Positions 56,823-64,000 of a DNA stretch of 64,000 nt are shown here, piece after piece. The position numbers and the translations under genes were made by a program. The stretch is from the NCBI GenBank assembly GCA_964016885.1, contig OZ024747.1:60264001-60328000 (forward strand), written 5' to 3'. The DNA is from Eledone cirrhosa. Its lineage: Eukaryota. The notes under the pieces were generated by a model, which had not been told where the DNA came from, ran no database searches, and saw nothing but the letters and a program-made list of their open reading frames with translations. Within the stretch, counting starts at the first letter, position 1, and the number at the start of each line of letters is the position of its first letter.

Positions 56823-58480
56823 TATATATATACACATATATATCTGGGGACTGTCTGCTATCAATATAACACCATATTAGTAGGCCGTCCCTGAATCCAA
56901 TATCTTCTATTCTATGTTTGGGTTCAAAGTAATCCTGCTACATAATTCTGCAAATAACACCTGATGGGACCACCTAGTATTTTGTCATAATCCAATGATA
57001 GAGCTGGGTCATCGAAATATGTATAGTGTTTACGCAGAATTAAAATTCTAAAGTAAATTTTCCAGTCTGGCCCTCTGTTGTTGTTTTAATGTATATTATA
57101 TATAGGGAGCAGCTGCTGTTAGGGCAAGACGTGTTTTCTTGGGCTCTGCTAGAGTCAGCAGCAACACACAACCACGTGTTGCTACACACACACAAGAGGA
57201 AAGAGAAAATTTAAAATTTATGAGACCAATAGAGATATGTACATTTATATATTTATATCTAGATATTGCTATTATCATTTACAGTCCCTCTGTGTTTAAT
57301 GTATGTTCATTAGTATATGTGTTGTTATTTCTGCTTGCATTTTGCATATATCTATATATATGCTTGCGTGGACCCCTCTCAAAAATTCGTTGGATTTTCT
57401 AATTGGATACCCTAACACTGGATACCAACACTGAATACACCTGAACTTCTACCAGGAAATCTTTCGTTGTCATTTCTGCTTGCATTTTACATATATAGAT
57501 ATATATATCAATGGTTGCGTGGACCCCTCTTAAAGATTCGTTGGATTTTCTAATTGGATACCCCGAAACTGGATACCAATTACTGAATACACCTGAACTT
57601 CTACCAGGAAATCTTTCATATCAGTGAAAATTTTCTTTTCTTTGCTTCATATATATATATTATATATACTTGTCCGCCATTGCAAAAGGCCATCAATTCA
57701 AAATTTTGAAGAGAGAGGAAAAGAGAGAAGTGATCTATGAACTTGTAACATCTCACTGATCCCCCCGTCACCACAATAACAATAACGCCTACACTCGCTC
57801 CCCACCATCACCACATTACTCTAAGGTCGCTGTCCTGTCCCCTGTTGACATACTGCTGACTCTCTTTTGATGTATGTATGTGTATATACATATGTGTATG
57901 TGTGTGTATATGTATATCTCAGTGGATGCGACCAGATTTCAACACAGCAACAACTACAACAACAACAGCAGCAACACCAACAACAACAACAACAACAGCA
58001 ACAACACCATCGTCTGTGTTGAATGTGTGTGTATGTATTTGTATATATGCGACAGCAATAACAGCATCAACACCATTGTCTGCAGCAACAGCAAACAACA
58101 ACAGTAACAACTACAATAACAACTACAGCACCAACAACTGCCACCACCATCACTGACCATCCACCACCACCACGCTGATACCATCCACCACCACCACACT
58201 GACACCATCCACCACCGCCATTACCAGCGTAAACAAACAATTATTATTGTTATTGTTATTATATACAAGCCGAACTGGACTGGGAAAGGTCAACAGTTGA
58301 CATGATAGTGATTTTGACGATTTTGACTTTGATTTTGATTTTGTATCAGTACTGTCGGTAATATATGTATATATATATATATGTTTGTGAGTTGTGTGTG
58401 TGATTGTATGCATGAATGAGTGTTGGTATGTGTGGTTGTGGTTTGTATGCATGAGTATTAGTGTGTGAGTCGTGTCAATA

Positions 58481-58512
<32 letters not shown>

Positions 58513-58515
<3 letters not shown>

Positions 58516-61500
58516 GACCATGCTGTAAAATGGAGGGGTAGAGAGGGCCCTTGAGTCTAGTAAGACATCCTCTCTAGTGCTGGTGGCACAAATAAAAGCA
58601 CCCAGTCCATGCTGTAAAGTGGCGCTGGTGTTAGGAAGGGCATCCAACCAGTGTATCAATGCCAAAAAGCTTATCAGCACAGCAACAAAACAGCATAGAA
58701 AAATATGAAGACGTCGCATCTCAGAGTTGCAACACTTAATGTTGGCACTCTCAGAGGTAGGTCTGCTGAAATAGCGGAGATGCTGGAGAGAAGGCAGGTG
58801 GATGTGTGCTGCGTGCAAGAGGTGAGATGGAGGGGTGCCTCTGCGAGACTAGTCGTAGGCAAGCGTCTTAGCTATAAGCTATTCTGGGTAGGTAAGGATG
58901 ATGGGTTAGGGGGAGTAGGCATTTTCCTGGCTGAGAAATGGATCAATAAGACAATAGAGGTAGTTCGAGTTAGTAATCGAATAATTAAGCTTAGATTAGT
59001 TGTAGGTAGGAGACTACTGACAATCATCTCGGTCTATGCTCCCCAAGCAGGCCTAGGCAAAGATGAGAAAGACTGCTTTTATGAGCAACTTTTGCAAACA
59101 ACCACAATGACAGAGGACGGAGACATCGTTATGCTAGCAGGAGACTTCAATGGTCATGTTGGACAGCTCCAGGATGGTTACACTGGGGTACATGGTGGGC
59201 ACGGTTACGGTTCAAGAAATGAAGAAGGAGTGAGACTTCTTGAATTTTGTGATGCAAGTACATTGACTATTTGCAACACAAACTTCCAGAAACCTGCCAA
59301 TCACCTAATAACCTACAAATCTGGTGAGCACATAAGCCAGATTGACTTCCTGCTAGTTAGGCAGCGGGACAGGCAGATAGTGTCTAATACCAAGGCATAC
59401 CCTGGGGAAGAATGTACCCCACAGCATAGGTTAGTTGTTAGTGATATCTCAGTAAGCAAGAGATGGAATGAGACATATAGGAAGGTGTGGAGAAGAAAGG
59501 TCTGGAAGCTAAAAGACCTTTCACTAAAATTCAAATTTAGGAAAGCCCTTCAAGATGTATATGACGAAAAAGAAGACGATTTAGAGACGTATGACATAGA
59601 TAATAACTGGAAGTTCTTACGTGACAACTTGCTGAAGGCTACTGATGAAACCTGTGGCTGGAGCAGAGCTCCAACCAGACAGAGAGTGACCTGGTGGTGG
59701 AACAGCAGTGTAGATAAGGCTATTAGAGACAAAAGACTAGCATGGAAGGCTTGGAATAAGGGTGGGAGTAGGGAAGAATATACAGCCACTAAGAGAGAAG
59801 CTAGACGTCAGGTGTACTTAGCACGCAGGGAGGCAGAGAGTAGGAGGTTTGCCAATGTTCTGCGACGGGAAGATCAGAGGCGTGCGGTGTTCCACATTGC
59901 AAGGCAGTGTGTCAATGCAAATCAGGATGTTGTTGGTGATAAATGTGTCCGGGATGATGCCGGTGTACTTAGTGTCACGAATGACCAGAAAAAGGAGGCC
60001 TGGAAATGTCATTATGAGAGACTGATGAATGTGGAGAACGAATGGGAGAGAGAGAAATTACCCTTGGTAGATCCGACAGAGGGACCAGCTATTGAGATTG
60101 ACGAATATAGGGTCCAAGAGGCGATTAGGGAAATGAAAAATGGTAAGGCGGCCGGACCATCGGGAATAGTTGCTGAGATGCTGAAGGCATCAGGGGACGT
60201 AGGCACTAAACTGGTTGCACGCATAATCAATCAGGCTATATATGGTGGTGTCATACCCAAAGACTGGTGCAGCAGTATTCTCATAAATTGCTACAAAGGT
60301 AAAGGGGATGCTTTGGAGAGGAGCAATTATAGGGGTATAAAACTGATAGATCAGGTTATGAAAGTGGCAGAAAGGATTCTAGCACAACTAATTAGAGAAA
60401 GGGTCAAACTAGATGAGATGCAGTTTGGTTTTGTGCCTGGGAAGAGTACAACAGATGCCCTCTTCTTGGTGAGACAAATGCAAGAGAGGTTCTTAGAGAA
60501 GAATAAGCCACTATACTTAGCCTTTGTTGACCTAGAGAAGGCCTTTGATAGGGTACCCCGATCTGTCATCTGGTGGTCCCTAAGGAAGCTGGGTGTTGAG
60601 GAATGGCTTGTAAGGACAGTGCAAACTTTGTACAGAGGTACTCTCAGTAAAGTCAGGGTAGGAATGGAGTTTAGTGAGGAATTCCAGATACAAGTAGGAG
60701 TACATCAGGGTTCGGTCCTCAGCCCGCTCTTGTTCATTATAGTCCTCCAAGCCATAACAGGAGTTTAAGACTGGCTGTCCATGGGAACTTCTCTATGCTG
60801 ACGATCTGGCTCTTATGGCAGAATCAGTAGAGGAGCTAGAGAATAAATTCCGGCTATGGAAACAGCAGTTGGAAGCAAGAGGACTGAGAGTAAATCTAGC
60901 TAAGACAAAAGTGTTGATGAGTAGAAAAGAGGACAAAACCCTGATTCCGTCAGGGAAATGGCCATGTTCGATATGCAGAAAAGGAACTGGCATAAATTCT
61001 ATAAAATGCACACAATGTAGGTCCTGGGTACACAAGAGATGTAGCGGGATAGCAGGCAAACTAACAGGTAGGGAGAAATATGTATGCAGTAGATGTACAG
61101 GGAAATTAGACAGTAGAAGTCGCACTGATAGACACATTTTTCAAATGCGAGAGGGCGCTATAGAAGTGGTGGATAGCTTCCGGTACCTAGGAGATCAGAT
61201 TAGCATGGGAGGAGGGTGTTCCGAGGCCATAGTATCTAGAATAAGGACGGGTTGGAAGAAGTTTAGGGAGCTGCTTCCTCTGTTGACGAAGAAGGGTTTC
61301 TCCCTGCGTACGAAAGGCCGGTTGTATGATGCCTGTGTGAGGAGCGCGATGCTGCATGGTAGTGAGACATGGGCAGCTACCGCAGAAGATATGCGACGGC
61401 TGGAGAGAAATGAGGCAAGCATGCTCCGTTGGATGTGCAGTGTAAATGTGCGTGAACGACCCAGCATAAATGTGTTGAGAGAGAAACTGTGTCTGAGAGG

Positions 61501-61783
61501 GATAGAATGTAGTGTACGGGAGAGGAGACTGAGGTGGTATGGACATGTGATGCGCATGGAGGATGACCGATGGGTGAAGAAGTGCCAGGAAATGCCAGTT
61601 GAAGGAAGACGTGGTAGAGGTAGACCACGAAAAACATGGGCGGAGGTGGTGAGAACAGACCTCAGATCATTGAAGCTCACGGTGGAGATGACGAGGGACC
61701 GTGACGAGTGGAGAGATGCTGTGCTGAATAAGACCCGTCCCACCCTTGCAAGCAGGGAAAAGCGGACGTAAAATGATGATGAT
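58513..61783 (+). mobile_element. Full-length RTE-clade (BovB/Expander-like) LINE, subfamily A
   Basis: ~190-bp 5' UTR, single APE-RT ORF and a (GAT)n tail immediately after the stop codon. No clear TSD seen. Confidence 0.95.
58705..61771 (+). pseudogene. RTE ORF: APE endonuclease + reverse transcriptase with inserted PHD finger; one 2-bp frameshift at ~60759
   Basis: APE motifs TLNV, VQEVRW, SVYAP, AGDFNG, QIDFLL, QHRLV; RT motifs [56 protein letters not shown] here versus ATAACAGAGGAG in the copy at ~63330. Confidence 0.95.
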
Positions 61784-62877: not shown

Positions 62878-64000
62878 AAGGGGATGCTCTGGAGAGGAGC
62901 AATTATAGGGGTATAAAACTGATGGATCAGGTTATGAAAGTGGCAGAAAGGATATTAGCAGAACTAATTAGAGAAAGGGTCAAATTAGATGAGATGCAGT
63001 TTGGTTTTGTGCCTGGGAAAAGTACAACAGATGCCCTCTTCTTGGTGAGACAATTGCAAGAGAGGCTCTTAGAGAAGAATAAGCCACTATACTTAGCCTT
63101 TGTTGACCTAGAGAAGGCCTTTGATAGGGTACCCCGATCTGTCATCTGGTGGGCCCTAAGGAAACTAGGTGTTGAGGAATGGCTTGTGAGGACAGTGCAA
63201 ACTTTTTACAGAGGTGCTGTCAGTAAAGTCAGGGTAGGAATGGAGTTTAGTGAGGAATTCCAGATACAAGTAGGAGTACATCAAGGTTCGGTCCTCAGCC
63301 CGCTCTTGTTCATTATAGTCCTCCAAGCCATAACAGAGGAGTTTAAGACTGGCTATTCATGGGAACTTCTCTATGCTGACGAATCTGGTTCTTATAGCCA
63401 GAATCAGTAGAGGAGCTAGAGAATAAATTCTGGCTATGGAAACAGCAGTTGGAAGCAAGAGGACTGAGAGTGAATCTAGCTAAGACAAAAGTGTTGATGA
63501 GTAGAAAAGAGGACAAAACTCTGATTCCATCAGGGAAATGGCCATGTTCGATATGCAGAAAAGGAACTGGCATAAATTCTATAAAATGCACACAATGCAG
63601 ATCTTGGGTACACAAGAGATGTAGTGAGATAGCAAGCAAACAAACAGGTAGGGAGAAATATGTATGCAGTAGATGTACAGGGAAATTAGACAGTAGAAGT
63701 CGCATTGATAGACACATTTTTCAAATGCAGGTGGGTGCTATAGAAGTGGTTGATAGCTTGCGGTACCTAGGAGATCAGATTATCATGGGAGGGGGATGTT
63801 CCGAGGCCATAGTATCTAGAATAAGGATGGGTTGGAAGAAGTTTAGGGAGCTGCTTCCCTGGGAAGGATAGATTGTAGTGTGCGAATGAGTAGACTTCGA
63901 TGGTATGGACATGTGATGCGCGTGGAGGATGACCGCTAGGTAAAGAAGTGCCAAGAAATCCCAGTAGAAGGAAGATGCAGTAGAGGTAGACCATGAAAAA
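62878..64000 (+). pseudogene. 5'-truncated, internally deleted RTE copy (runs off the window)
   Basis: Aligns to 60302-61279, then jumps to ~61494; +1 frameshift near 63382; PHD finger retained. Confidence 0.93.

Follow-up and report, generated by a model that had tools for sequence, protein, structure and literature searches.

Why would the reverse transcriptase (RT) of a retrotransposon enclose a complete PHD-type zinc finger? The question is raised by a 64,000-nucleotide stretch of the Eledone cirrhosa genome (assembly GCA_964016885.1, contig OZ024747.1, forward-strand positions 60,264,001 to 60,328,000; hereafter the window), which holds copies of a long interspersed nuclear element (LINE) of RTE type whose finger lies between RT motifs 6 and 7. 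The element has a single open reading frame (ORF) coding for an apurinic/apyrimidinic endonuclease (APE) and an RT, without a C-terminal CCHC motif or RNase H, and ends in a short-repeat 3' tail; the absence of those two modules and such a tail are features of the RTE clade. Two families in the window, which we call A and B, carry the finger. The domain graft is real, selected, widespread and placed at a mechanistically telling site, and makes the element a new form of a known kind of LINE. Our best explanation, to which we give a probability of about 0.45, is that the finger serves as a target anchor, its basic face on DNA and its pocket on methyl-lysine.

A six-frame scan of the window located the pattern C-x2-C-x10-C-x2-C-x4-H-x2-C-x14-C-x2-C at 60965-61096 and 63545-63676 on the forward strand and at 1369-1500 on the reverse strand; the two remaining matches are translations of Cys-rich microsatellites, and thus artefacts. 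A sequence-only reading of the window had placed a C4HC3 finger between KTKVL and FRYLG, 87 residues apart, and the intact ORF agrees: KTKVL occupies 734-738 and FRYLG starts at 826, with the finger (755-798) in between. The same reading called the finger a PHD domain. This identity passed the Pfam profile check (PF00628, cut-off 24 bits), the copies at 60965, 63545 and 1369 scoring 27.4, 33.6 and 25.8 bits over profile positions 1-47 and all 21 alignment members matching (E up to 0.01). The modelled fold is also that of a PHD finger: the isolated 68-residue model has a core predicted local distance difference test score (pLDDT) of 74-89, and all 43 rows shown by Foldseek were PHD proteins (top probabilities 0.97-1.00, no E-value reaching 0.001), the Pygo, SP100, Hop1 and PHF1 rows being presumed to be such and the others identified by title. 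A C1 domain was considered and rejected. One 60-residue piece reached 27.4 bits with C1_2 (cut-off 26) over positions 15-47 only, against 32.6 bits for PHD over 1-47, and the finger matches neither the N-terminal His ligand of C1 nor the whole C1 profile. The eight ligands are present in all three window copies, as had been proposed; the copy at 63545, however, is 95% identical to the main copy and is therefore not independent evidence. The Cys of 'KVCVH' in the window's family B copy is a change at the level of the copy: Trp stands at this position in 27 of 30 B copies.

The finger replaces a short linker. Between motifs 6 and 7 there are 83-93 residues in elements with the PHD, compared with 25-26 in PHD-less relatives. 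In the AlphaFold model of the ORF (mean pLDDT 78.5) the RT strands on either side of the finger are intact and the finger itself scores 75-86. Comparison of this model with LINE RT structures, suggested earlier as a check, returned L1 ORF2p as the best match (E 4e-32; Z 24.7, root-mean-square deviation 4.4 over 575 residues), and the modelled endonuclease domain aligns with those of L1, TRAS1 and R1 (Z 21.8-23.5). In sequence alignment, ORF residue 739 falls on residue 667 of R2Bm. Insertion 6a of R2Bm (residues 672-677) lies between the same two motifs and reads the upstream target motif, and deletion of this loop blocks nicking (PMC10499050). The same report predicts 6a to be unique to R2 among the RTs of elements that lack long terminal repeats (non-LTR), and in two vertebrate R2s it wedges into upstream DNA (PMC11601368). 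By analogy, the PHD finger would face upstream target DNA as 6a does.

Conservation was assessed on an alignment of 103 rows. Depending on the ligand, 102 or 103 of these have it, and the ligands are near-invariant among relatives at 40-53% identity. Position 775, two residues ahead of the His ligand, is Trp in 101 rows and Tyr in two; residues are likewise maintained at 753 (aromatic in 92), 762 (Val or Thr in 102), 766 (Ser or Ala in 102) and 767 (Ile in 91), and Lys or Arg occupies 752, 778, 779 and 797 in 78, 92, 93 and 75 rows. All 97 fingers scored for net charge are positive (+2 to +12, median +6). Purifying selection on the finger was supported by comparing family A with 30 B copies: in the finger, the proportions of replacement (pN) and silent (pS) differences are 0.23 and 0.83 (the latter saturated), silent changes being far above replacements; the motif 6 region is similar (0.19 and 0.97), and the downstream linker, at 0.50 and 0.70, has a considerably higher pN. 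Between A and B, seven of the eight ligand codons show silent differences, and the majority codon never carries a replacement. The finger is thus under purifying selection.

How far the finger extends beyond Eledone was addressed by several searches. With the finger region as query, 20 relatives were recovered, all with the eight ligands, the best being a protein of Octopus bimaculoides. Two other searches used the RT core only, leaving the finger out. The best 120 rows of the first comprised 81 with a full finger, one degenerate, 31 with a 25-residue linker (catfish or catfish-like) and seven unparsed; those of the second comprised 113 with a full finger, two short and five unparsed. Degenerate long linkers accordingly number 1 of 82 and 0 of 113. 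A library clustered at 50% gave 671 matches at E up to 1e-10, and the strict pattern finds a full finger in 82 of the best 150 (Trp at position 775 in 80 of them), the other 68 being mostly cut, decayed or with a longer His-Cys gap. In a tree of 72 RT rows built with the insert excluded, the 66 rows with a finger (mostly a random draw from 210) separate from the six without (FastTree support 0.992, SH-aLRT 99.4). We infer a single ancient graft; one gain holds for the tree sample only, because the outgroup is thin and contains no named RTE reference element, the nearest named proteins being unannotated catfish ORFs. Judging from sequence, the finger marks a whole RTE-type lineage in which about 200 related elements keep it. 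The earlier suggestion of a graft into the RT is therefore borne out, but not as a peculiarity of this element. Clusters in the Atlas automatically named PHD-finger/RT cover Mollusca and Cnidaria from few members, and therefore the co-occurrence of the two domains is already recorded by automatic annotation. Two PHD-RT LINE proteins (P0139 and P0504) are filed under bacterial metagenome-assembled genomes and probably represent host contamination.

The finger most resembles that of Pygopus. In a comparison of the family profile with the PDB, the six best rows are PHDs of Pygo1 and Pygo2 (best E 1e-6), and the finger model matches Pygo PHD structures (2vpe, 2vpb, 4up0) at template-modelling scores of 0.56-0.62. 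The H3K4me2 cage of Pygo1 has W366, Y341 and D352 as walls and V350 and A356 as base, with E360 and I357 also needed; W366E, V350E or A356E each abolishes or nearly abolishes binding (PMC2726290). Aligned with W366, Y341, V350, A356 and I357 of Pygo1 are ORF residues W775, W753, T762, S766 and I767. Readers of unmodified H3K4 (BHC80/AIRE type) have an acidic cluster ahead of the first Cys and lack an aromatic cage (PMC3241642). The LINE finger is not of that type, given Lys or Arg at 752 in 78 and an aromatic residue at 753 in 92 of the 103 rows. RAG2's PHD recognises H3K4me3 although it has no acidic Arg2 pocket (reviewed in PMC3241642), and since the pocket residues of Pygo type are kept here, a role of the finger as a histone reader is plausible. 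Steering of insertion by histone marks would likewise be plausible. A predicted complex of the finger with zinc and the genome's own unmethylated H3 tail (residues 2-33) scored 0.00, which weighs neither way.

Insertion sites were also examined. Independently of the tail, a 3' flank was scored as TA-rich when a 20-mer rich in TA occurred no more than 50 nt from the 3' anchor; the background for this measure is 9-18%. In family A the 3' flank was TA-rich for 25 copies out of 39, and in family B for 12 out of 29 (one of 30 unparsed). The control, a PHD-less RTE-like family of the same genome that differs in endonuclease, tail and age, had 4 out of 24 (four of 28 unparsed; A versus control, p 2.7e-4). 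In a second set of forty A copies, drawn in list order, the 3' flank was TA-rich in 25 of 39 cases and the 5' flank in 29 of 40; over both sets, family A 3' flanks (L001-L042, L115-L154) are TA-rich in 50 of 78. The (TA)n bias of family A is therefore real. The possibility that the finger itself reads (TA)n was downgraded. The bias does not run through the clade: a finger together with a readable tail occurred at 14 of 79 metagenome loci, about two of which had TA-rich 3' flanks (judged by eye). Family B does not clearly exceed the control (p 0.07). Because relatives elsewhere mostly lack it, the bias is probably not the finger's work. RTE target sites have been tied to the 3' microsatellite (PMC6007223), and the endonuclease, together with pairing of the (ATG)n tail, more likely determines both where precisely the nick falls and the (TA)n bias here. 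About 25 of the 28 control loci (L083-L110) are copies of an RTE-like family that is older, lacks the PHD, ends in an AAGTAC/AAGT tail and shows no TA bias; L106 stands for one more family, its tail being (GAA)n.

Since some 200 related elements keep the finger, it likely helps the enzyme to hold chromatin at the insertion site, and a two-point anchor fits best with the kept pocket and the basic face. In such an anchor the finger would be placed toward upstream target DNA, like R2 6a; the basic face would grip DNA while the conserved pocket would hold a methylated lysine, most probably H3K4me2/3, and both contacts together would fix the enzyme on chromatin. On nucleosomes, Hop1 uses a PHD pocket and a separate DNA surface (PMC12365614). 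Anchoring to the target as such seems likely. Several observations nevertheless weigh against the full proposal. The counterpart of Pygo D352, position 764 beside a two-residue gap, is Asp or Glu in none of the 103 rows, and the position of E360, whose mutation leaves H3K4me3 binding at background only (PMC2726290), is acidic in four. In typical H3 readers the binding site carries negative charge (PMC10124903), whereas the LINE finger is basic. The orientation of the finger is not fixed, because both flanking linkers are modelled with low confidence (mean pLDDT 60 at 741-750 and below 50 at 803-811). Finally, the surroundings of young copies are (TA)n repeats, and a connection with promoters bearing H3K4 methylation is not evident. 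It is more doubtful that this is a widespread and undescribed LINE lineage with a methyl-histone reader in the RT palm at the target-DNA loop of R2, in which H3K4 methylation chooses or stabilises insertion sites and the motif 6-7 loop is a general plug-in socket for targeting modules of non-LTR RTs.

The same pocket and charge may be accounted for in other ways. The finger may bind DNA alone, as a folded equivalent of R2 6a whose aromatic residues pack on the RT or stack on bases, with no histone mark involved. We consider this rather unlikely, although it shares the site of 6a and agrees with a median net charge of +6 and no conserved acid ahead of the sixth ligand. The PHDs of BAZ1A and BRD1 bind DNA, that of BAZ1A having neither cage nor acids (PMC5636791), and the 5' flanks, the side that a 6a-like part would touch, are those TA-rich in 29 of 40 copies; the scarcity of TA-rich 3' flanks among PHD-bearing relatives (about 2 of 14) argues that no single fixed sequence is read. 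Action before integration is improbable: the finger would then bind element RNA or a host protein, for packaging, nuclear entry or stability, in place of the absent ORF1. A PHD of the same type does occur in ORF1 of many CR1/L2 LINEs, with top hits mostly to Pygo (PMC4120745), the finger is basic, and PHDs also bind non-histone proteins (PMC3241642). However, many relatives, in a catfish and in this genome, share the single-ORF layout but have no PHD, and the finger is grafted into the loop which in R2 is turned to the target DNA. As for a neutral passenger, or a chance Cys pattern in a surface loop, the change of linker length does show the loop to be tolerant, but near-invariant ligands at 40-53% identity, the excess of silent changes and the rarity of degenerate long linkers largely refute it and make it extremely improbable.

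The elements that carry the finger are listed below with their parts. Twelve of 12 genomic copies picked for long frames have an intact 1022-residue ORF, eleven of them differing from the first by 4-16 residues. Over ORF and tail, the window copy of family A is 99.7% identical to one intact copy (six substitutions and the 2-nt deletion). Compared with the window copy, forty further A copies are identical at a median of 99.5%, and three of them are full length. Sequence upstream of the ORF is common back to 57087-57089 in three of eight other copies and to 57087-57235 in six of eight. A 123-residue piece around the finger gave 66,715 first-look candidates in the 3.0-Gb genome, which are candidates and not a copy number; all 150 that were scored showed 100% identity. 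Family A is therefore young and recently active, and makes up a large share of the genome. Family B, with 66% amino-acid identity to A, is older.

Features of the finger-bearing elements in the window (UTR, untranslated region; aa, amino-acid residues)
Feature	Coordinates	Strand	Evidence
Young LINE of RTE type (family A), full length, with one ORF and an (ATG)n tail	57089-61783	+	
5' UTR, ~1.6 kb, with microsatellites and a 145-bp tandem duplication (57321-57617)	57089-58704	+	
APE endonuclease-RT ORF, 1022 aa when intact; window copy broken by a 2-nt deletion near 60759	58705-61771	+	
APE-type endonuclease domain, ~aa 1-250	58705-59454	+	Pfam Exo_endo_phos
RT motif 6 strand KTKVL, aa 734-738	60902-60916	+	strand E731-740 in model
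Pygopus-like PHD finger, aa 753-798	60959-61096	+	pattern, Pfam, model
PHD finger ligands C755, C758, C769, C772, H777, C780, C795, C798			
PHD finger pocket residues W753, T762, S766, I767, W775			
PHD finger conserved basic residues K752, K778, R779, R797			
RT motif 7 FRYLG, aa 826-830	61178-61192	+	
(ATG)n 3' tail, immediately past the stop codon	61772-61783	+	
Decayed 5'-truncated family A relative, 95% identity, finger 63545-63676	62878-64000	+	
Family B copy (older), 5'-truncated, (GAT)n tail, finger 1369-1500	333-2241	-	

The 5' UTR of family A (57089-58704) contains no forward-strand frame of at least 100 residues. It has (CAA)n and (CAC)n runs and, about 190 nt upstream of the start codon, a poly(T) tract that is the site of three 5' truncations (L118, L125 and L142). 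The family B 3' UTR (333-700, reverse strand) is longer, and its motif GGTGTTAGGAAGGGCATCCA recurs in the family A 5' UTR at about 58627-58646. Short pieces of the 3' end of the family lie at 5729, 10414, 17363, 22002, 30950, 40092 and 44612 in the window and are possibly like short interspersed nuclear elements. Inverted (CAT)n runs stand close behind the 3' end in four copies (L019, L021, L023 and L139), an arrangement in tail-to-tail pairs; at L019 what follows is an inverted 3' end of family A. Most of the finger is deleted in single copies of the PHD-bearing families (L081 and L082); as there is one copy of each, the loss probably reflects decay after insertion.

The finger touches on the question of how APE-type LINEs choose sites beyond the preference of their endonuclease. 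As of a 2014 survey, PHD domains in LINEs had not been tested functionally (PMC4120745). Here the PHD is part of the catalytic protein, in a family with one ORF and recent activity, and steering by chromatin could be probed directly through changes in the pocket and in the basic face. The engineering of retrotransposon tools for gene insertion is also concerned, since the motif 6-7 loop can take up an entire folded domain. In literature searches aimed at it, which did not extend to Repbase and most subscription journals, where an entry may mention the insert, no listed paper describes a PHD in the RT of an RTE element in its title or opening abstract.

The element has much in common with other RTE-clade LINEs, namely the single APE-RT ORF, the microsatellite tail, a close RT and the lack of a C-terminal CCHC. 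The nearest PHD-less relatives found, with their linker of 25-26 residues, are proteins of Hemibagrus guttatus, which we take to be of Rex3/Expander type. A full-length single-ORF RTE element with a zinc finger is known from Octopus vulgaris (RTE-2_OV; PMC9115989); compared by description only, it has 1109 residues, and the finger described for it is a terminal C2H2 rather than a PHD in the RT. CR1/L2 LINEs do have PHDs, in ORF1 or N-terminally, 5' of the endonuclease (Metcalfe and Casane 2014, PMC4120745), whereas here the PHD lies inside the RT of another group of LINEs; the structure of ORF2 is described as highly constrained (PMC4120745). Because Pygo is likewise the top hit for the majority of CR1/L2 ORF1 PHDs (PMC4120745, Table 1), the finger was probably donated by another LINE with a PHD of CR1/L2 type. 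The likeness to Pygopus itself consists in the equivalents of W366, Y341, V350, A356 and I357 (K4me2 cage and Thr3 pocket). The Pygopus PHD differs, however, in being acidic and in its long loop 2, which binds BCL9; the LINE finger is basic, lacks D352 and E360, and has this loop shortened. In R2 (R2Bm 8gh6, R2Tg and R2Pm), 6a occupies the same motif 6-7 loop, but it is a short loop of a site-specific element with a restriction-like endonuclease, while the finger is a 46-residue two-zinc domain of an APE-type element without sequence likeness to it. RAG2, likened by description only, offers a precedent, in that its PHD links an enzyme which rearranges DNA to H3K4me3; there the PHD belongs to a separate recombinase subunit, whereas the LINE finger is an insert in the polymerase.
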